Source: Tagaea sp.
GTDB taxonomy: Bacteria > Pseudomonadota > Alphaproteobacteria > CACIAM-22H2
Assembly (NCBI GenBank): GCA_965228135.1
Contig: OZ245798.1
Span: 2,891,037 to 2,955,036 of the forward strand
Length of the DNA: 64,000 nucleotides
Reading direction: 5' to 3'
Each line of letters starts with the position of its first letter. The stretch's first letter is position 1. Of the stretch, positions 2,833 through 54,354 are shown in pieces. The position numbers and the translations under genes are program-made. The notes below the pieces were generated by a model, which saw nothing but the letters and a program-made list of their open reading frames with translations, ran no database searches and was not told where the DNA came from.

Positions 2833-3777
2833 TTACGTCGGGCCTTCGGGGCGCGGGGCGGGCGGGATCTGCGATTGGCGCACCGAATTTCGGTGCAGGG
2901 TGTAGATCGCCGCCGCGACGATCAAGGCCGAGCCCGCGATCGTCGCCAGCGTGGGCATCTCGTCGTAAAGCCAATAGCCGACCGCCGCCATCATCAGCAG
3001 CCGCAGATATTGCAGCGGTGCGATCGCCGACGCGTTGCCGGTGCGAAACGCCGTGGTGAACAGCAAGGTCGACACGGCTTGCAGCACGGCCAATACGATG
3101 ATGATCGCGAGCGCGCCTGCCGTGGTCGGCACCCAAACCCACCACGCCATCGGCGCAAAACACGCGATCAGCACCAGGCTTTGGAAGAAGATCACCGTCT
3201 CGGCGGTGTCCAAACGCGAGCCGAAGCGCAACGTGACGACCGACACCGCCCCCGCCGCCGACCCCGCCAAAGCGAGCAGCGCATAGAATTCGATCGGCCC
3301 CGAGAAAGGCTGGAGCATCACGCCCACGCCGAAAAAGCCGACGGCCGTCGCCGACCAGCGCCGCCAGCCGACTTTCTCGCCCAGGAACAGCGCGGCCAGT
3401 GCGGTGATGAACAGCACCTCCGACATCTGGATCGCGGTCACGTCGGCGAAGGGGATATGGACGACGGCGATATTGCCGCACAGCATCGAGCAGACGGCGG
3501 CGGCGCCGCGAAACAGATGCAGGCGCAAGCCTTGCGGATGCAGGATGGCGCTGCGATGGCGCCAGAACAGCGGCGTCATGATCAACACCGCGAAGGTTTG
3601 GCGCAGGAACAGGATCTCGACCACCGGCAGCGTTTCGGCCGCCTTGCGCAGCATGACGCCGGTGACCACGAACATGCACATCGCCGCAAGCATCAACAGC
3701 GAAGCGGCGAAATCGGGCGGTAACGACCGAAAATCGCGCCGCAGGTCTTGTAGCCGCGCGATCGGCGAGGTGGACAA
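2833..3777 (-). CDS. DMT superfamily (EamA-like) transporter
   Basis: Ten hydrophobic segments and EamA-like duplicated repeats. TTG start at 3777 with GGAGGAAG RBS 7 nt upstream. Confidence 0.75.
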   Translation of the reverse strand: MSTSPIARLQDLRRDFRSLPPDFAASLLMLAAMCMFVVTGVMLRKAAETLPVVEILFLRQTFAVLIMTPLFWRHRSAILHPQGLRLHLFRGAAAVCSMLCGNIAVVHIPFADVTAIQMSEVLFITALAALFLGEKVGWRRWSATAVGFFGVGVMLQPFSGPIEFYALLALAGSAAGAVSVVTLRFGSRLDTAETVIFFQSLVLIACFAPMAWWVWVPTTAGALAIIIVLAVLQAVSTLLFTTAFRTGNASAIAPLQYLRLLMMAAVGYWLYDEMPTLATIAGSALIVAAAIYTLHRNSVRQSQIPPAPRPEGPT

Positions 3778-3964
3778 GCGTCTTCCTCCGAGAGATTGGT
3801 AATATCAATCGCTTATCCCCGCCGCGACGACAAGCCTTAAAGGCTCGAACGTCCAATCCAGCGATCAAAAAATGATCTCTAAATAGGTCTTTAAAGGCTT
3901 TTAAAGCTTATTAATGGATCATCACTTGTCGAGAATGAAATTTCGACTATGCTCCATAAAAAGA

Positions 3965-3983
3965 GCGTAAATTTAATTTACGC
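3965..3983. promoter_or_regulatory. Near-perfect inverted repeat GCGTAAATT-T-AATTTACGC in the AT-rich hipB leader; candidate HipB autoregulatory operator
   Basis: Palindrome read directly, sitting within an AT-rich (~35% GC) 170-bp intergenic region immediately 5' of the hipB start. Further CTTTAAAG-type palindromes occur at 3833-3846 and 3887-3908. Confidence 0.35.
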
Positions 3984-3990
3984 CCTAATT

Positions 3991-4341
3991 ATGGATCAAA
4001 TTATGCCGAAACCGCAAAGCCGCACGCTTTCGCGCCAGACGCAAGAAGCATTGGCCCATCTCGGCCATCTCGTTCGCGCGGCGCGCATCACGCGCAAGGA
4101 AACCGTGGCGCAGCTCGCCGAGCGGATGGGCGTCTCGCGCGGACTTCTGCAACGCATCGAGCGCGGCGATCCCGGTTGCGCGGTCGGTGCGGTCTTCGAA
4201 GCAGCTTCCTTGGTCGGCATACGTCTATTCGGTCTCGACCCGGCGCAGCTATCCGCGAACGTCGCGCAATCCGCGCGCGAATTGACGCTGCTGCCGCGCG
4301 CGGCGCGGCGCGCCCGGCGCGAGGTCAAGGATGACTTCTAA
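3991..4341 (+). CDS. hipB: HipB-like XRE-family HTH antitoxin/transcriptional regulator
   Basis: HTH_XRE signature (TQEALAHLGHLVRAARITRKETVAQLAERMGVSRGLLQRIERG). Overlaps hipA by 11 nt. Alternative start at 4003. Confidence 0.7.
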   Translation: MDQIMPKPQSRTLSRQTQEALAHLGHLVRAARITRKETVAQLAERMGVSRGLLQRIERGDPGCAVGAVFEAASLVGIRLFGLDPAQLSANVAQSARELTLLPRAARRARREVKDDF

Positions 4342-41360: not shown

Positions 41361-41765
41361 ATGCTCGAATATCGCGTTGCCGCGCGCCGCATCGACGCGC
41401 ATGGCGCCGTCGCGACGGCCAAATCCGCCGAGATCGCGCTCGACACCGATCTGTCGGGGCGGCAGGACGCGCTCAACCCCGCCGAGTTGCTGCTCGCCGC
41501 CATCGCCGCTTGCATGTTGAAGGGTATCGAACGGGTCATGCCGATGATCCGTTTCGAATTGCGCGGCGTCGAGATCGCGCTGCACGGCATGCGCCAGGAC
41601 AGCCCGCCGAAAATAACCGAGATCGATTACGAGATCGTCGTCGATACCGACGAGTCCGATCAACGGCTGGAATTGCTGCACAAGAACATCCGCAAATACG
41701 GCACGATCTCGAACACGATCGCGGCGGCGGTGAAATTGGAAGGCACCGTGCGACGCAAGGGCTGA
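41361..41765 (+). CDS. OsmC/Ohr-family peroxiredoxin-like protein
   Basis: 134 aa with two conserved Cys contexts of the OsmC fold. Confidence 0.75.
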   Translation: MLEYRVAARRIDAHGAVATAKSAEIALDTDLSGRQDALNPAELLLAAIAACMLKGIERVMPMIRFELRGVEIALHGMRQDSPPKITEIDYEIVVDTDESDQRLELLHKNIRKYGTISNTIAAAVKLEGTVRRKG

Positions 41766-41790
41766 GCCTTCGCGCGCAAAGCGCGTGGCG

Positions 41791-43808
41791 CGGATACCTA
41801 CTTTAAGTTTTCTATTACTCTTGGTGTCAAAAATTGGCCTACGCTCAATTCGAGCCAAAAATCAGATCGCCAATCGAATAGATTGCATCGCCAAAATTCT
41901 GAATGAGTCTTTCTCCTTGCCTTAGAAAGGAAACATCTTGCCTAATCCCAGCGAGCTCTAAAGCATCTCCTATCTGCTTGCTAGTTGGGTGAGCATCACC
42001 TAGGCGCATCTCATATGTGCCGACAATAGGCCCAAAGACGGAGCGCGCTCTCTCGGCTCCAGCTCTTTGAGCCAAAATATCTTCAAGGAGCTTATTTGTT
42101 TTAAGATCTTCCTTCTTTGCATTTTGTGAAAGTTTACGGAGCTCGCGTACGTCAAGACGATCTGTAAACACACGAACAAGCTCTTTTGCTAACCGCAGTA
42201 AAGACGCCTGGTCTTTACTCATAAATCGAGATACTTGCTGCTTAACCAAGGCATCATTAATATCGTGATTAAATATCTTTATATTAAAGTGTTTTTGAAA
42301 TGCGGCCTCAAGCATTCGCATATTTTCAAACAGCGAATCTTCAACCGCTCGCGTATTTGCAATCTGCGTCTTTACTTGGGCAGACAGTAGCTCTACTGAA
42401 ACTTTGCCATCGGGAGCAACATTATGCGCTGCCCATACATGTTGCTCCCAAGCCGCCAGCCGAGCAATATCATACGCATAGACCGTAATTAGATCAGCGG
42501 CATTGATTCCGAAATGCGTAGAGTACCCGGAGGTGGAGCGAATGCTACCCGTTTCGGCAGTGTGCCATTCCAATGAAAAGCCGCGATGGCTCAAAAGCTC
42601 ACTAACAACAGTTGGTCGAAACCACAACCAGCGTCCGATGTCTTCATTATCTAGTTCGGCAGATGGCATCCGTGAACCATCCGTCTTCACGATGAACTGA
42701 GGAAGAAAGTTATCCACGTCACCGCGAACTCGAATGCTACGACCTTGATGGTCAATCCATTCATCGCGCCAAAATTCTGCTTCCACGCGCACGCCTTCAA
42801 TATCTTGGCGATGGCCCTCTGATTTTTCATATTCTGAATTGCTGCTTGTCTCAGGCCCGAGTATCGGTGCATCTGCTTCCACATCGACGTCGGTTCGCCA
42901 AGATCGAAACAATGCCCAGCTTCCGCCGAATATAGCGTGTAGCGTTCGGACGCTCACTTCGAAGCGGCCATGATCGCGATCTTCGCGACAGTTATTCAAG
43001 CCTTCAAATGGGCTACCTTCGATCGCCAATACATTCGCTACTCTTTGACGATAATAAGATAGGCGTAGGGCTAGATTTCTGGCCGCCAAGTAATCGAGAA
43101 GGAATTCTCGCTTGATTTCGATCTGTTTATGATTCCCGTCTGCATCGAAGATCTCGCGCGCGACAATTACAAAATCTTCCTCCGGCCTAACCCAATTGTC
43201 GCCTTCTTTGATCAACCGAAGCGCAACCACTAGATCAGGATTTAGTATCCATTTTTTCCCGCCAATAACTGGCTGCGGATGCTCAAAGACTAAATGCACG
43301 CCAATCGGATTTTTATCGTTGTAACTATATTGTTCGATGGATGAATAGTATCCATCCTTAAAGGCGCAAGGTTGGGCGCTGCATGCAATTCCGATATCTT
43401 CCCAAGTAAGACCGTCCGCAAACTGCCTATGCTCTGGCGGAAAAGCGACAGACCCACAAAGAAATGAGTCGCTTATGTAGTCTAAATCTCGGACTTCTCC
43501 CCGGGTATCATCGATAGATGCCCGCAGAGGAACCCATGTTGCGTCAGAAAAAAACCGCTGCGTCTCTTTGCGCAGAAGAAGCCACTCTTTATCTACGGTC
43601 ATTTCTCAACAGCCCATGCAAAGGGTAATGAAGAGGCCGTCACAGATTAGAATGGCATTCTAAATAATAAAAGAAACACATTTAAAGGTATCGATCTACT
43701 CGCAGTGCCTATTCGTGCTTTTACTTTGAGTTATTGGGCTTGAAGCCGACGGCAGAGGATGGTGGCTTAGGGCAAGCGGAAGAAAAACGAAACTATGATC
43801 AATATGTA
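41791..43808. mobile_element. Low-GC (~45% vs ~67% flanks) genomic islet inserted at the 3' end of tRNA-Arg, bracketed by 9-bp direct repeats CGCGTGGCG (41782-41790 and 43809-43817); no integrase present
   Basis: Abrupt composition shift read directly. Right repeat overlaps the tRNA-Arg 3' terminus. Single cargo ORF. Confidence 0.5.
41845..43602 (-). CDS. Orphan 585-aa protein of unknown function (island cargo; candidate defence/abortive-infection-type gene)
   Basis: Long uninterrupted ORF in AT-rich DNA, where random ORFs of this length are very unlikely. Trp-rich, no signal peptide, TM segment, Walker motifs or any recognisable catalytic motif. Confidence 0.6.
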   Translation of the reverse strand: MTVDKEWLLLRKETQRFFSDATWVPLRASIDDTRGEVRDLDYISDSFLCGSVAFPPEHRQFADGLTWEDIGIACSAQPCAFKDGYYSSIEQYSYNDKNPIGVHLVFEHPQPVIGGKKWILNPDLVVALRLIKEGDNWVRPEEDFVIVAREIFDADGNHKQIEIKREFLLDYLAARNLALRLSYYRQRVANVLAIEGSPFEGLNNCREDRDHGRFEVSVRTLHAIFGGSWALFRSWRTDVDVEADAPILGPETSSNSEYEKSEGHRQDIEGVRVEAEFWRDEWIDHQGRSIRVRGDVDNFLPQFIVKTDGSRMPSAELDNEDIGRWLWFRPTVVSELLSHRGFSLEWHTAETGSIRSTSGYSTHFGINAADLITVYAYDIARLAAWEQHVWAAHNVAPDGKVSVELLSAQVKTQIANTRAVEDSLFENMRMLEAAFQKHFNIKIFNHDINDALVKQQVSRFMSKDQASLLRLAKELVRVFTDRLDVRELRKLSQNAKKEDLKTNKLLEDILAQRAGAERARSVFGPIVGTYEMRLGDAHPTSKQIGDALELAGIRQDVSFLRQGERLIQNFGDAIYSIGDLIFGSN

Positions 43809-43812
43809 CGCG

Positions 43813-43889
43813 TGGCGTCCCCGAGAGGAATCGAACCTCCGACCTACAGTTTAGGAAACTGCCGCTCTATCCTGCTGAGCTACGGGGAC
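43813..43889 (-). tRNA. tRNA-Arg (anticodon CCU)
   Basis: Manual fold: acceptor GTCCCCG/CGGGGAC, D-arm TAGCTCAGCAGGATAGAGC, anticodon loop UUCCUAA, T-loop GGAGGTTCGATTCC, encoded CCA. 77 nt. Confidence 0.9.
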
Positions 43890-49631: not shown

Positions 49632-51455
49632 ATGTCTGCCCTGCCCCGTATGCCGTTCGACATGTCCGACGACGATTACGGCGTCCCGTTTCAAATGCCG
49701 GGACGCTCGAACGGGTTCTTCGACCTCGATGCCGATGTGGGGCTCGGCTATCCCACGCGCCGCGCCGACAACATCAAGGTCCAGACGATCCTCGGAAACG
49801 CCGGGGATCTCGACCTCGCCAAGACCGATGGGCCCACCGGCTGGGGGCTCTACACGTTGGACGACGCGATCCGGTCGTACCAGAAGCGCAACGATTTGAA
49901 GGTCGATGGCTGGCTGCGCCCGGGCGGGCCGACGATTTCCAAGATGCGCGACCAGTTCGGCGCGAGCCTGGGAAAATACCCGGCCCCGAGCCCGCGCGAA
50001 GTCGACGAACATCACGACCGTTTGGCCCAAGGCGAACCCGGTCTGCTGAACGGCACCTACGGCGAATTGAAACTCGCGCCGATCTCCGGCCTGCCCGCAC
50101 CCGATGAAGATATGGTCGGGTCGAACCGCTCGATGGCCGAATATCTCCAGCGTCATCGCAGCGGTCTGGCCGACGCGCCGGATACGCTCGCCTCTTACAT
50201 CCGCACGATGGGTGTGCCCGGCATCGTCCAGGCGCGCGACTTCGTCGGGCAATGGGACCAAACGAAACCCGGCCAAGGCGGCGACGCGATCCGCGCGATC
50301 CTGACCGCCCTGGGCGACGCGCCCGAGCTGCAACGGCAATTCTTCGGCGGCCCGATCGCCAATGACCGCCCGATCGGGATTCGGATCGACGATCTGGTGT
50401 ACCGGCCCGGCGAAGACGAAAGCGTCGCGGTCCCGCTGCCATATCGGCCGGGCGAAATTGGGGCCCCGATTCGTCTGCCTTACACGCCGCCGCTATCGCG
50501 CGACGGGCTGCTCGATCCCGAATACATCAAGGCGTTCGGCGAACGCCTCGCGGCCAAGCGCGCGTTCGAGGAACAGGAGCGCGCCAACACGGTCTATGAC
50601 GACGGCTTGCTCGACGCGAACAACTGGCCGCCGCATTTGCGCGCCCGCTTGCTCGGCGATGCGCAAGCCAGCGACGACGCGAATCAGAACTTCAGCGGGA
50701 ACGACCGGCTCCAGCCCGCCGATGCGCCGGAGGCGACGGAGGAGGAATTCACCGGCCAAGACGAAGACGCCGACGCGATCCAAATCGCCGAAGCCAAAGG
50801 CCGTCCGTCGCAGCCCGCGCAACGACCGCCGGCGTCGACAGCACCGAAGCCGCCAGCGCCAAAACCGACAGCACCGCAAGCGCGTCCACCAGCGACGCCG
50901 GTGCTATCGTCGAAGTTCCGCGAGGCGATTTCCGCTGCCGAAGCTGGCGATAATCCGGTCCCGCCTTGGGATGCCAGGAACCCAGGTTCGACGGCAATCG
51001 GTCGATATCAGATTCTCAAGGATGCTTTTGTCGATGCGGGCTTGAAGGACGCAAGCGGAAATTGGCGTGCGGGCAATGCGCTGGGCGTAAAGACCGATGC
51101 CGAATTTCTTGCCAGCCAGGACGCGCAGAACAAAGCGTTCGACATGATAATGGCGCGAAACGACAAGCAACTTAAAAGTAATGGCGCTTATAACCATATC
51201 GGCAAAGACGTCGATGGCCTCAAGGACAAGTTCAAAATAACCGAATCCGGTCTTTTGGCGGCGGCACATCGGCAAGGCGCCGGGGCCGTCCGCGACTATC
51301 TGGTGCGGATGCGCGAGAATGAATGGAATTCTCAAAAGGGACTGGATGAAATCCAAAATTCGGACAGAAACCCGCAGCAAATTAAGTCGATGATGGATGC
51401 GCACAAAGCCATCGAACAGCGCTTGAGGGAATTCACCAATGTCCCGCACCGATGA
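49632..51455 (+). CDS. Large protein copy 1: peptidoglycan-binding domain + Pro-rich linker + divergent lytic transglycosylase (SLT)-like C-terminal domain; no signal peptide
   Basis: PG_binding_1-like repeat (VQTILGNAGDLDLAKTDGPTGWGLYTLDDAIRSYQKRNDLKVDGWLRPGGPT). C-terminal E-A-G..NP....N.GS.AIGRYQI...NGAYNHIG pattern matches the SLT E-S/GLMQ/AYNxG motif spacing. The track start at 49500 is a TTG inside the predicted -10, so I prefer the ATG at 49632 with GGAG RBS. Confidence 0.6.
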   Translation: MSALPRMPFDMSDDDYGVPFQMPGRSNGFFDLDADVGLGYPTRRADNIKVQTILGNAGDLDLAKTDGPTGWGLYTLDDAIRSYQKRNDLKVDGWLRPGGPTISKMRDQFGASLGKYPAPSPREVDEHHDRLAQGEPGLLNGTYGELKLAPISGLPAPDEDMVGSNRSMAEYLQRHRSGLADAPDTLASYIRTMGVPGIVQARDFVGQWDQTKPGQGGDAIRAILTALGDAPELQRQFFGGPIANDRPIGIRIDDLVYRPGEDESVAVPLPYRPGEIGAPIRLPYTPPLSRDGLLDPEYIKAFGERLAAKRAFEEQERANTVYDDGLLDANNWPPHLRARLLGDAQASDDANQNFSGNDRLQPADAPEATEEEFTGQDEDADAIQIAEAKGRPSQPAQRPPASTAPKPPAPKPTAPQARPPATPVLSSKFREAISAAEAGDNPVPPWDARNPGSTAIGRYQILKDAFVDAGLKDASGNWRAGNALGVKTDAEFLASQDAQNKAFDMIMARNDKQLKSNGAYNHIGKDVDGLKDKFKITESGLLAAAHRQGAGAVRDYLVRMRENEWNSQKGLDEIQNSDRNPQQIKSMMDAHKAIEQRLREFTNVPHR

Positions 51456-52086
51456 GCCCTCCATCCGTTCGATCATCGCTGGGGTCGCCTTGCTGGCCGC
51501 CGTTGCCGCACTCAGCGAATCGATGGCGATACCGATCGTCGCGAACGCCGAATGGTCGAGGCACGGCTTCGAAGTAGTTCCTTTGTACGATCTCACCCAG
51601 GCGCGCGACCCGGAACTCATCGCGCTCGCCGAACGCGTTATCGCAAGCGATCCAGATTTAGCCGCGCATTACGAAAATCCGAAAATCGACGAGCTGTTCG
51701 GATTCGATGCCAGCCAGGTCTATGTCGGCCGCGTGCGGATCGAACCGAAAGGGCAGCCTTGGGTCGCCATCGTCATCAGTGCGAGCAATTATTGCGGCAC
51801 GGCCGGATGTTCGACGTCGTACCTGTTCGCCAAGCACAACGGCGAATGGCGGCCCCAAACGTGGTTTTTTCGATCCGATCCGCCGCCTGCACCGATGGCA
51901 ATATTGTTGACGACGTCGCCGACGGTCGGTTGGATACCTGGAAGAAGTGGCGCGCGCGCGGGACGGGCGCAGTTATTTCCGGTCTTGATCAACGGTCGTC
52001 GCGTCATCCGGGGCGAGGATGGCGGGCAGTTCTGGGATGGCAAAGAATGGCAAGATTTTTGCCGTCGTTGCAATGAACTGGGCTGA
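51439..52086 (+). CDS. Small Cys-containing exported companion protein copy 1 (candidate inhibitor/immunity protein)
   Basis: 215 aa with N-terminal charged region plus hydrophobic core (signal-peptide/anchor-like) and 5 Cys. Start overlaps the large-gene stop by 17 nt (translational coupling). Confidence 0.6.
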   Translation: MSRTDEPSIRSIIAGVALLAAVAALSESMAIPIVANAEWSRHGFEVVPLYDLTQARDPELIALAERVIASDPDLAAHYENPKIDELFGFDASQVYVGRVRIEPKGQPWVAIVISASNYCGTAGCSTSYLFAKHNGEWRPQTWFFRSDPPPAPMAILLTTSPTVGWIPGRSGARAGRAQLFPVLINGRRVIRGEDGGQFWDGKEWQDFCRRCNELG

Positions 52087-53723
52087 TGTTCGGCCAAGGC
52101 GGCAACGCGATCCGCAGCTATCAGAAGCGCAACGATCTGAAAATCGATGGCTGGCTGCGCCCCGGCGGGCCGACGATCACGAAGATGCGCGACCAGTTTG
52201 GCGCGAGCCTGGGAAAATACCCGGCCCCGAGCCCGCGCGAGGTCGACGAACATCATGACCGTTTGGCGCAAGGCGAACCCGGTCTGCTGAACGGCACTTA
52301 CGGCGCGATCAAACTCGCGCCGATCCCCGGCCTGCCAGCCCCGGACGAGGATATGGTCGGCTCGAACCGATCGATGGCCGAATATCTCCAGCGCCATCGC
52401 AGCGGCCTGGCCGACGCGCCCGAGATGCTCGCGGCTTATGTCCGCAATCAGGGCCTACCCGGCATCGTCCAGGCGCGCGACTTCGTGAACCAGTGGGACC
52501 AAACCAAGCCCGGCCAAGGCGGCGACGCGATCCGCGCGATCCTATCGGCCCTGGGCGACACGCCCGATCTGCAACGCCAATTCTTCGGCGGCCCGATCGC
52601 CAACGACCGACCGATCGGGATTCGCATCGGCGATATGCGCGGCGAAATCAGCGATATGCTGCACCGGCCCGGCGATGATAAAGGCGCCGCAACACCGCTG
52701 CCGCACCGGCCCGGCGAGGAAGGCCCGATGGTCCGCCAGCCTTACGCCTCGTTGCCGCCGCTATCGCGCGACGGGCTGCTCGATCCCGACTACGTCAAAG
52801 CATTCGGCGAGCGCTTGGACGCCAAGCGCGAATTCGAGGAACAGCAGCGCGCCAACGCCGTCTACGACGACGGCTTGCTCGACGCCAACAACTGGCCGCC
52901 GCATTTGCGCGCCCGCTTGCTCGGCGATGCGCAAGCCAGCGACGACGCGAATCAGAACTTCAGCGGGAACGACCAGTTCCAGCCCGCGAATGCGCCGGAA
53001 ACGACGGACGAGGATTTCACCGGCCAAGACGAAGACGCCGACGCGATCCAAATCGCCGAAGCCAAAGGCCGGAAGCAGCAACCCGCGCAACGGCCGCCGG
53101 TATCAGCAGCACCGAAGCCGCCAGCGCCGAGACCGACAGCACCGCAGGCGCGTCCGCCTTCGACGCCGGCGCTATCGTCGAATTTCCGCGACGCAATCGC
53201 CACCGCCGAAGCAGGCAACATTCCTGTCCCGCCCTGGGGTACGGTGAACTCAGGCTCGAAGGCAATGGGTCGATATCAGATTCTGCCGAAGACTTTCGTC
53301 GATGCGGGTTTGAAGGACGCAAGCGGAAATTGGCGTGCGGGCAATGCGTTGGGCGTCAAGACCGATGCCGAGTTTCTTGCCAGCCAGAATGCGCAAAACA
53401 AGGCGTTCGACATGATAATGGCGCGAAACGACAAGCAACTTAAAAGTAATGGCGCTTATAACCATGTCGGCAAAGACGTCGATGGACTTGAGGCCAAGTT
53501 CAAAATAACCGAATCGGGCCTTTTGGCGGCGGCACATCGGCAAGGCGCTAGGGCCGTCCGCGACTATCTGGTGCGGATGCGCGAGAATGAATGGAATTCT
53601 CAAAAGGGGCTGGATGAAATCCAAAATTCGGACAGAAGCCCGAAGGAAATTGAGTCGATGGAGAAGGCACACAAAGCCATCGAACAGCGCTTGAGGGAAT
53701 TCGCCAATGTCCCGCACCGATGA
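52086..53723 (+). CDS. Large protein copy 2 (N-terminally shorter paralog): partial PG-binding domain + linker + SLT-like C-terminal domain
   Basis: ~85-90% identical to copy 1 from AIRSYQKRNDLK onward, with an 8-aa indel. Start ATG overlaps the preceding stop (TGATG). Confidence 0.55.
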   Translation: MFGQGGNAIRSYQKRNDLKIDGWLRPGGPTITKMRDQFGASLGKYPAPSPREVDEHHDRLAQGEPGLLNGTYGAIKLAPIPGLPAPDEDMVGSNRSMAEYLQRHRSGLADAPEMLAAYVRNQGLPGIVQARDFVNQWDQTKPGQGGDAIRAILSALGDTPDLQRQFFGGPIANDRPIGIRIGDMRGEISDMLHRPGDDKGAATPLPHRPGEEGPMVRQPYASLPPLSRDGLLDPDYVKAFGERLDAKREFEEQQRANAVYDDGLLDANNWPPHLRARLLGDAQASDDANQNFSGNDQFQPANAPETTDEDFTGQDEDADAIQIAEAKGRKQQPAQRPPVSAAPKPPAPRPTAPQARPPSTPALSSNFRDAIATAEAGNIPVPPWGTVNSGSKAMGRYQILPKTFVDAGLKDASGNWRAGNALGVKTDAEFLASQNAQNKAFDMIMARNDKQLKSNGAYNHVGKDVDGLEAKFKITESGLLAAAHRQGARAVRDYLVRMRENEWNSQKGLDEIQNSDRSPKEIESMEKAHKAIEQRLREFANVPHR

Positions 53724-54354
53724 GCCCTCCATCCGTTCGATCATCGCCGGGGTCGCCTTGCTGGCCGCCGTCGCGGCACTCAGCGAATCGATGGCGATAC
53801 CGATCGTCGCAAACGCCCAATGGTCGAGGGATCGCGTCGAAGTGGTTCCTTTGTACGATCTTACCCAGACGCGCGACCCGGAACTCATCGCGCTCGCCGA
53901 ACGCGTTATCGCAAGCGATCCAGATTTAGCCGCGCATTACGAAAATCCGAAAATCGACGAGCTGTTCGGATTCGATGCCAGCCAGGTCTATGTCGGCCGC
54001 GTGCGGATCGAACCGAAGGGACAGCCCTGGGTCGCCTTCGCCGTTGGCGCGGGTGCGTATTGCGGCACGGCCGGGTGTTCGGCGTCGGCGCTGTTCGCCA
54101 AGCGCAACGGCGAATGGCATGCTCAAACGCCGTTCTATGCATACGATCCACCGCCTGCGCGGATGGCAATATTGTTGACGAAATCGCCGATGGTCGGTCG
54201 GATACCGGAAAGATATCGCGCACGCGCGGGACGGGCGCAGTTATTTCCGGTCTTGATCAACGGCCGTCGCGTCATCTGGGATGATGATGGCGGGCTGTTC
54301 TGGGATGGCAAAAAATGGGAAGGTTTTTGTCGTCTTTGCAATGAACTGGGCTGA
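53707..54354 (+). CDS. Small Cys-containing exported companion protein copy 2
   Basis: ~88% identical to copy 1. Substitutions clustered in a central patch (VAIVISASNY/VAFAVGAGAY, STSYLFAKHNGEWRPQTWFFRS/SASALFAKRNGEWHAQTPFYAY). Confidence 0.6.
   Translation: MSRTDEPSIRSIIAGVALLAAVAALSESMAIPIVANAQWSRDRVEVVPLYDLTQTRDPELIALAERVIASDPDLAAHYENPKIDELFGFDASQVYVGRVRIEPKGQPWVAFAVGAGAYCGTAGCSASALFAKRNGEWHAQTPFYAYDPPPARMAILLTKSPMVGRIPERYRARAGRAQLFPVLINGRRVIWDDDGGLFWDGKKWEGFCRLCNELG

Follow-up and report, generated by a model that had tools for sequence, protein, structure and literature searches.

A low-GC single-gene islet at the 3' end of tRNA-Arg(CCU) in Tagaea and the widespread mobile family of its candidate defence protein

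How did about 2 kb of low-GC DNA holding a single gene come to lie against the 3' end of a tRNA gene in a GC-rich alphaproteobacterial chromosome, and what does the encoded protein do? The DNA in question is an islet between tRNA-Arg(CCU) and an osmC-like gene in a 64-kb stretch of a Tagaea sp. genome (contig OZ245798.1; this whole stretch is called the window, and coordinates are counted from its first base), and its only cargo is a gene for a protein of 585 aa. An interpretation made earlier from the letters of the window alone (the original prediction) took the islet to be an integrase-mediated acquisition with an orphan gene that fitted the profile of a defence or abortive-infection (Abi) protein. 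With a probability of roughly 55% for the statement as a whole, we read it as a foreign islet inserted at the tRNA 3' end, whose gene belongs to a mobile family and encodes a single-protein abortive-infection or defence RNase. The features on which the first part of this reading rests are listed here; L013, L093 and L107 are relatives that are introduced below.

41791 to 43808, minus strand: low-GC inserted islet of 2,018 bp, seen from its GC contrast, missing at the empty site of L013 and present in L093 and L107.
43809 to 43817, no strand assigned: tRNA-proximal copy of the 9-bp repeat, CGCGTGGCG on the plus strand and CGCCACGCG on the tRNA strand, made up of the last 5 nt of the tRNA and 4 nt of its trailer.
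41782 to 41790, no strand assigned: distal copy of the 9-bp repeat, beside the osmC stop codon; the L013 empty site has a single copy.
43813 to 43889, minus strand: tRNA-Arg(CCU), intact, with an encoded CCA (ARAGORN, anticodon given as CCT; Rfam tRNA match of 66.7 bits).
41845 to 43602, minus strand: the 585-aa gene, a member of an uncharacterised family and the islet's only cargo (open reading frame [ORF], intact in three lineages).
41361 to 41765, plus strand: osmC-like gene of 134 aa, the chromosomal neighbour that the tRNA adjoins where the islet is missing (ORF; Pfam OsmC on the L093 orthologue).

The GC content is 0.37 to 0.52 between about 41800 and 43800, compared with 0.59 to 0.71 (about 0.66) in the flanks, and this sharp fall is confined to the segment between the two repeat copies, as had been proposed. 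The islet is the sole strong low-GC patch of the window, in which every other kilobase has a GC content of at least 0.56; milder dips to 0.57 to 0.59 occur at 3001 to 4000, 51001 to 52000 and 53001 to 54000. The junctions between flank and islet read CGCG/TACA and TCCG/CGCC, with the slash marking the point of transition. Because the 3' end of the tRNA is at 43813, the right-hand repeat copy holds the final 5 nt of the tRNA (CGCCA), which agrees with the overlap that the original prediction described, and the islet begins 5 nt past the end of the tRNA. The 9-mer is common in GC-rich DNA and occurs 7 times in the window where 7.2 copies are expected; since this is the chance level, the repeat by itself would prove little.

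The insertion is established by comparison with an empty site. Relatives were sought with the MltF-like protein whose gene flanks the tRNA on the side away from the islet, taking one genome per species, and the nearest was a Tagaea sp. metagenome-assembled genome (JAYRYC010000006, here L013) whose MltF-like protein is 92% identical. In L013, one CGCCACGCG and then a short hairpin separate the tRNA-Arg(CCU) from the osmC-like gene's stop codon; the islet is absent and osmC lies directly beside the tRNA. When the junctions were aligned base by base, the window exceeded L013 by 2,018 bases and by a second copy of the 9-mer. Because the empty site has a single copy, the 9-bp repeat truly arose by duplication when the islet went in, be it an att core or a target-site duplication. 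The islet is also present at this position in two more contigs (L093 and L107), again with CGCCACGCG at both junctions. The L093 ORF is 86% identical to the window copy in nucleotides and 85% in amino acids, and L107 is 84% identical to the window across the shared region; the initial bases of the islet are not alike among the three. We regard a real insertion of mobile-element cargo as very nearly certain, and the claim of a horizontally acquired insertion at the tRNA 3' end with a genuine 9-bp duplication is borne out by L013.

The arrangement resembles that of tRNA-linked tyrosine-integrase islands in several respects: the insertion lies at a tRNA 3' end and leaves the tRNA intact, short direct repeats stand at both junctions with one of them inside the tRNA, the composition is foreign, and presence or absence varies with a clean empty site. 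It differs in that the whole islet is 2 kb with one gene, that the identity spans 9 bp of which 5 nt belong to the tRNA, and that neither an integrase nor recognisable arm-type sites are present. Apart from ORFs nested inside it, the 585-aa gene is the sole ORF of at least 60 aa in the islet. The description of one long ORF with no recognisable sequence domain and no integrase beside it was accurate: no integrase or transposase gene was found in the islet, and the 585-aa ORF has no recombinase domain. The window islet also has no terminal inverted repeats linking its two ends and no arm-type repeats, and its end sequences have no further copy in any fetched locus. The claim that the insertion was integrase mediated is thus not borne out, with neither an enzyme nor att arm sites identified. 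The noncoding DNA of a circular form would total 54 + 9 + 206 = 269 bp, which is about the size of a lambda-type attP, although this comparison is speculative. With modest confidence, we propose that a site-specific recombinase acting in trans integrated the islet.

A different route would be a DDE-type transposase acting in trans on a non-autonomous mobile insertion cassette, in which case the 9-bp repeat would be a target-site duplication and the position at the tRNA a coincidence. The empty site confirms a duplication of fixed length, 9 bp is a typical duplication length for several insertion sequence (IS) families such as IS4/Tn5 and IS1, the repeat includes just 5 nt of the tRNA, and the islet is without an integrase, all of which such an event would accommodate. 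We nevertheless consider it unlikely, given that the window has no terminal inverted repeats, that the first islet bases vary among the window, L093 and L107, and that the islet ends recur in no other fetched locus. The extreme 3' end of a tRNA gene is furthermore a classical target of site-specific integrases and not of transposases, and close relatives show both occupied and empty sites, the empty one being perfectly clean.

The coding sequence argues against a recent arrival of the islet. All three islet-bearing lineages keep 585 intact codons (window 41845 to 43602; L093 349 to 2106; L107 281 to 2038), with pairwise synonymous divergence (dS) of 0.34 to 0.53 and a ratio of nonsynonymous to synonymous divergence (dN/dS) of about 0.15. 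The intact frame together with the dN/dS of 0.15 indicates a functional gene under purifying selection, and the dS values, in an islet common to three lineages, indicate that it is not recent; once inserted, it was long maintained within a single clade of Tagaea-like alphaproteobacteria. GC at third codon positions (GC3) is 0.43 to 0.47 in the islet ORF compared with 0.81 to 0.84 in osmC of the hosts across the three lineages. The ORF shows few signs of amelioration despite the dS of 0.34 to 0.53 among its copies.

Presence and absence of the islet do not follow the relationships of the flanking DNA. In the 975 nt of flank on the osmC side, the occupied L093 and the empty L013 share 96.9% identity, but either of them shares only about 89.5% with the occupied window; 86 sites distinguish the window, and 15 and 12 distinguish the other two. 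Because these identities group L093 with L013, there was either a clean loss of the islet in the L013 lineage or more than one gain of it at this site. The pattern is compatible with precise excision, with repeated site-specific integration and also with allele replacement through homologous recombination in the flanks.

Far from being an orphan, as had been supposed, the 585-aa protein belongs to a large family, with more than 1,678 homologues in a protein search and 823 clusters at 50% identity, nearly all of about 585 aa, in an exhaustive profile search. The best 120 homologues cover 99 to 100% of the query at 66 to 70% identity, excepting the window's own sequence (100%) and one at 85%, and their hosts include Burkholderia pseudomallei, Yersinia, Photorhabdus, Nitrospira, Gallionella, Methylotenera, Desulfobulbaceae and Bacteroidales. 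Mutual identity over 585 aa is 74 to 87% for members drawn from the four phyla Bacteroidota, Nitrospirota, Desulfobacterota and Pseudomonadota; so tight a range across phyla is unusual and points to wide exchange in recent times. The copies in the window, L093 and L107 branch apart, at 66 to 69% identity to all other members.

Family proteins are labelled hypothetical in every source. The 585-aa protein has no usable sequence match in Pfam, NCBIfam, PADLOC or PHROGs; PADLOC-DB 2.0.0 returned 0 families at E ≤ 10, 0 of 58 diverse family members matched any Pfam family, and neither the single protein nor a family profile matched a PDB sequence. Literature searches with the family accession numbers returned no mention, and family peptides were not found in the DefensePredictor supplements. 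The family is thus uncharacterised in every library searched, and the islet geometry is a known kind of feature.

The mechanism proposed below draws on structure prediction. An AlphaFold2 (AF2) model built from a 104-sequence alignment of diverse members reached a pLDDT of 95.5 and a pTM of 0.87 (an alignment from 25 close homologues gave a pLDDT of 48) and is beta-rich from residue 1 to about 400 and helical from 400 to 585. The layout of the coding sequence is as follows.

42706 to 43602, minus strand: codons 1 to 299, beta-rich N-terminal part, a proposed sensor or regulatory module (AF2 model; architecture of homologue P0269).
41848 to 42705, minus strand: codons 300 to 585, conserved C-terminal module, a beta region with an HFGxN motif followed by a helical HEPN-like domain from about codon 400.
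41989 to 42006, minus strand: codons 533 to 538, R-L-G-D-A-H, an invariant HEPN-type Rx4H motif (alignment of 104 members).

Residues D170, E404, E421, R459, R533 and H538 are invariant in the 104 diverse members. R533 and H538 fall within the consensus LRxxDAH, an Rx4H arrangement in which D536 is 92% conserved, and the N-terminal part is poor in invariant residues, with D170 and a near-invariant D123. One homologue, P0269 (1,232 aa), has only family residues 301 to 579, fused to an N-terminal region of 946 aa for which neither Pfam nor the PDB sequences (940 aa searched) gave a match. Because P0269 carries the C-terminal module on another N terminus, this module is a separable unit, as an effector domain would be, which indicates domain swapping upstream of it. 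The structural neighbours of the model include HepS, RnlA and HEPN toxins (HEPN-MNT and SO_3166). Structure prediction gave a confident model with a HEPN-like C-terminal domain and an invariant Rx4H motif, and we put a HEPN RNase mechanism at about even odds.

The protein invites comparison with single-protein HEPN Abi and defence systems (ApeA, AbiD/AbiF/AbiJ-type proteins, RnlA, HepS and the DS-11 CBS-HEPN protein), which it resembles as a stand-alone gene on mobile elements and in the combination of a variable or large N-terminal part with a C-terminal helical domain bearing Rx4-6H. It differs from them in that it has no sequence match to HEPN Pfam families or to PADLOC models, among which are models for ApeA and Abi families.

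The N-terminal 400 residues have no fold neighbour in the PDB besides part of SeAvs3 (PDB 8DGC), which Foldseek matched to the model with E = 4.7e-3 and a probability of 1.0; a Foldseek search of viral structures (BFVD) gave no match. SeAvs3 is an antiviral STAND NTPase of 2,028 aa that senses the phage large terminase. Because no Cap4 nuclease, other STAND protein or TPR protein is among the remaining structural matches, the match is probably to an Avs3-specific part. It differs from the window protein, which has 585 aa, is 13 to 14% identical to SeAvs3 without a sequence-level match, lacks the Cap4 nuclease and matches no Pfam family, NTPase families included.

The genomic surroundings of homologues were surveyed at about 96 loci, and no neighbour is conserved across them, which implies that the gene works alone. 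In Yersinia enterocolitica the homologue belongs to a P2-like prophage, in which the portal and gpA genes flank it. The P2 gpA-gpQ locus has been defined as a defence hotspot (Rousset et al. 2022, PMC9122126), and the Yersinia gene shares this placement with its accessory genes (old, tin and others), from which the family differs in that it matches no PADLOC 2.0.0 model and that the window copy lies outside a prophage. In the Yersinia P2-like prophage and one viral contig (L007 9758 to 10474; L008 2205 to 2906; L105 9742 to 10494), the family gene is followed, from its stop codon or with an overlap, by an ORF of about 235 to 250 aa that seems conserved between them; absent from the window, this ORF may be a lineage-specific partner gene.

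Other homologues occupy similarly mobile surroundings. On a Bacteroidales contig the gene adjoins genes for an Eco57I/MmeI-type methylase, an SNF2 helicase, PIN_12 and RadC as well as an IS, and in B. pseudomallei (L001) it shares an integrase island with genes for a D12 methylase, DUF2971, a resolvase and BrnT/BrnA. Among 5,426 complete E. coli genomes, 20 carry the gene in one copy each; in ECOR29 a tyrosine integrase gene at tRNA-Asn immediately precedes the homologue (WP_044862893.1), which stands on the border of an island with conjugative-transfer genes. Adjacency to a tRNA gene was considered as a general property of the family and rejected, being seen only in the Tagaea-like clade and E. 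coli. Plasmid records with a family gene number 14, including a Pseudomonas plasmid where it stands among restriction endonuclease, helicase, FRG and DUF2971 genes, and pNDM-GJ01, where a helix-turn-helix (HTH) gene precedes the homologue. Two unrelated loci have a DUF2971 gene about 1.5 kb or less from the family gene (L001 7754 to 8647 in the B. pseudomallei island; L094 8099 to 8947 on the Pseudomonas plasmid). In IMG/VR, 10 viral contigs carry a homologue with integrases, Mu-like and P2-like phage genes and relaxases nearby, and some of them have the PADLOC-positive neighbours CapH/CapP, LmuB, PDC-S68 and PDC-M16A.

A further context emerged from an all-versus-all comparison of the loci, in which DNA similarity between unrelated ones ends about 25 to 45 nt 5' of the ATG and about 45 to 115 nt 3' of the stop codon. 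Downstream of the gene lies an attC-like site, with GCATAAC 14 to 26 nt after the stop, an imperfect palindrome and a terminal GTTRRRY, and in many loci the GTT core of the previous attC stands 25 to 45 nt before the ATG. The inverse-core motif was found at most 60 nt from the stop in 34 of 94 assessable loci, compared with 1.9% of background 60-nt windows; attC calls are based on this core-motif count against the background rate, an earlier scoring scheme having been too strict for bulged sites. Examples are L152 3371 to 3439, L130 6787 to 6852 and L097 7981 to 8046, with more in L108 to L186 and others, and several contigs have further attC-like sites near the gene. The L152 site folds with TAAC/GTTA closing a bulged hairpin, and in L130 the inner hairpin forms (z = -4.0) with the cores not closed. 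By these motifs, about one third of the sampled family loci (34/94) are single-ORF integron gene cassettes.

Integron cassettes have been shown by experiment to store phage-defence genes (bioRxiv 10.1101/2024.07.02.601686, 10.1101/2024.07.02.601719; the work appeared in Science in 2025). The homologue cassettes are like them in having a single ORF, which a short leader separates from a GTT core and which has an attC-like site just 3' of its stop, although at about 1.9 kb they are large for integrons. The window copy differs in having no attC and a 206-nt leader and in being bounded by CGCCACGCG at the tRNA, not by GTT cores. No integron attC was found in the window islet, whose 54-nt 3' untranslated region has no core sites and no fold (z = 0.1), and the islet does not lie at an attI/attC GTT site or beside a neighbouring cassette. 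The possibility that the window islet is itself an integron cassette was rejected on the lack of an attC and of a GTT-site insertion.

With these contexts in hand, it can be asked whether the 585-aa protein is the islet's own mobility enzyme, a novel recombinase or transposase that inserts beside tRNA genes. A one-gene insertion with a clean duplication and no second enzyme in the islet, from a gene that has spread horizontally very widely, is what such an enzyme might produce. Elsewhere, however, the gene is bounded by attC or sits inside prophages, integrase islands and plasmids that have their own integrases, and tRNA adjacency is confined to the Tagaea-like clade and to E. coli, where an integrase lies between. 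Gene-bearing E. coli genomes have exactly one copy, DNA similarity between loci ends tens of bases from the ORF so that element ends are not shared, and the fold resembles no recombinase, transposase or nuclease. We therefore hold a role in its own mobility to be very improbable.

The same contexts bear on whether the gene is instead a selfish toxin or addiction module that, through post-segregational killing or by arresting growth, would keep integron arrays, plasmids and islands stable, with no anti-phage role. HEPN-like domains are common toxins, and HEPN-MNT and SO_3166 are among the structural neighbours; toxin-antitoxin (TA) genes lie nearby in some loci (BrnT/BrnA in L001; NTP_transf_2 and PhdYeFM in L009), the pNDM-GJ01 homologue has an HTH gene ahead of it, and integron arrays commonly hold TA modules (bioRxiv 10.1101/2024.07.02.601686). 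Against this, an antitoxin-like partner is conserved nowhere across the roughly 96 loci, and the window islet has no second ORF and a leader without structured or repeated RNA. A protein of 585 aa with a large conserved non-catalytic part is also unlike a simple toxin, and the chromosomal islet has been retained to a dS of about 0.5 under purifying selection in a setting where addiction would have no obvious benefit. An addiction module is accordingly an explanation to which we assign a small share of the probability, similar to that of the transposase route.

In the window copy a 206-nt leader includes a promoter-like site of its own; the cassette copies have no such leader. Its features, together with a hairpin on the far side of the islet, are listed below.

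43657 to 43686, minus strand: promoter-like TTTAAA-18-TAGAAT, about 55 nt 5' of the ATG and inside the islet (consensus scan; consensus match only).
43649 to 43661, no strand assigned: 13-nt palindrome AGAATGcCATTCT overlapping the -10 hexamer, read from the sequence and largely kept in L093 and L107.
41771 to 41787, no strand assigned: GC hairpin CGCGC-AAA-GCGCG between osmC and the repeat, overlapping the distal repeat copy, read from the sequence; probably the original tRNA/osmC terminator.

The -10 region of the promoter-like site is kept in L093, and the palindrome AGAATGcCATTCT could be an operator at which a repressor from another locus acts. The 206-nt leader was searched for known, significantly structured and repeated RNA, and none was found. 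Cassette copies (L098, L108, L141, L181 and others) have a leader motif of approximately (A)TGCTGA..GA.A within about 25 nt of the ATG, and the window holds a diverged form of it, GGGCTGTTGAGAA, at 43603 to 43625. On the osmC side, a GC hairpin occurs in the tRNA-osmC spacer of every lineage with a different sequence each time (L013 7505 to 7525; L093 2163 to 2186; L107), that of L093 being a perfect 9-bp stem built from the repeat itself; this spacer hairpin is likely a shared bidirectional terminator.

A private leader raises the alternative that the gene has been domesticated in the Tagaea-like clade for a host function outside conflict, such as RNA turnover or stress-linked regulation beside osmC. 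Long vertical retention at a dN/dS of 0.15, the separate branch of the clade copies at 66 to 69% identity to all others and a promoter-like leader lacking in the cassette copies would each fit such a history. Yet the site is still polymorphic among close relatives, and the composition is still foreign (GC3 of 0.43 to 0.47 compared with 0.81 to 0.84 for osmC). Every family-invariant residue is also kept, which suggests the same biochemical activity as in the mobile copies. We rate domestication as somewhat less probable still than an addiction module.

A phage-defence role for the 585-aa protein is, in our estimate, moderately favoured. The initial guess of a defence or Abi gene gains support from the P2 hotspot, the restriction-modification (RM)-like and PIN neighbours, the positions just after integrases, the integron cassettes and the HEPN-like domain with its Rx4H motif. 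Homologues do recur in settings of the kind expected of defence genes, namely the P2 hotspot, the vicinity of RM-like, PIN and RadC genes, sites beside integrases, and cassettes. Of the original prediction as a whole, the foreign insertion and the good defence candidate have stood, and the orphan status and the integrase-mediated entry have not.

Several observations weigh against the reading of the islet as a carrier of a defence RNase. Both defence and RNase activity are predicted from context and model. The structural scores for HEPN are modest, no HEPN Pfam family was matched at the sequence level even when 9 isolated C-terminal domains were searched, and HEPN motifs typically have a polar residue after the arginine where the family has a hydrophobic one. 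The sensor label is itself a deduction. The 585-aa protein has no PADLOC match, a tblastn search of 50,697 phage records found no homologue, and known defence genes are a minority of neighbours. As for the insertion step, it comes without an integrase, arm-type repeats or terminal inverted repeats, and the pattern of presence and absence could also come from homologous recombination in the flanks.

Low-GC DNA of 2,018 bp thus entered the extreme 3' end of tRNA-Arg(CCU), duplicating 9 bp of the target, and taking both sides together, we hypothesize the following course for the protein that it encodes. In the cell, the N-terminal beta-rich part would keep the C-terminal HEPN-like RNase silent until a phage-derived cue appears, whereupon the HEPN-like domain, probably once dimerised, would cleave RNA and thereby stop the infected cell or the phage.

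A bolder extension, which we offer tentatively and consider rather doubtful in its full form, is that the family represents a new and widespread type of single-protein phage sensor, in which an Avs3-like beta-rich receptor is wired to a divergent HEPN RNase without a STAND NTPase. Such sensors would be among the largest common integron cassettes and would be exchanged almost unchanged between phyla, and the window copy would be a cassette-derived gene that has its own promoter and was fixed at the tRNA by a trans-acting recombinase.

The window is a rare case in which occupied and empty sites together fix an insertion to the base, and it also holds a lesson for annotation, since what looks like a domain-less orphan may belong to a family of hundreds of clusters. 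One gene here connects three mobile stores of defence: integron cassettes, prophage hotspots and tRNA islets. If the protein does act in defence, it would vary the theme of single-protein HEPN abortive infection by an N-terminal part that is without precedent, and a single gene with a confident, nearly unmatched fold and 74 to 87% identity across four phyla would offer a clean system for receptor-to-HEPN switching without an NTPase or a partner. If the reading is true, E. coli, Salmonella, Klebsiella, Yersinia, Burkholderia pseudomallei and many environmental phyla would carry an unnamed defence protein that has no Pfam, NCBIfam or PADLOC entry.

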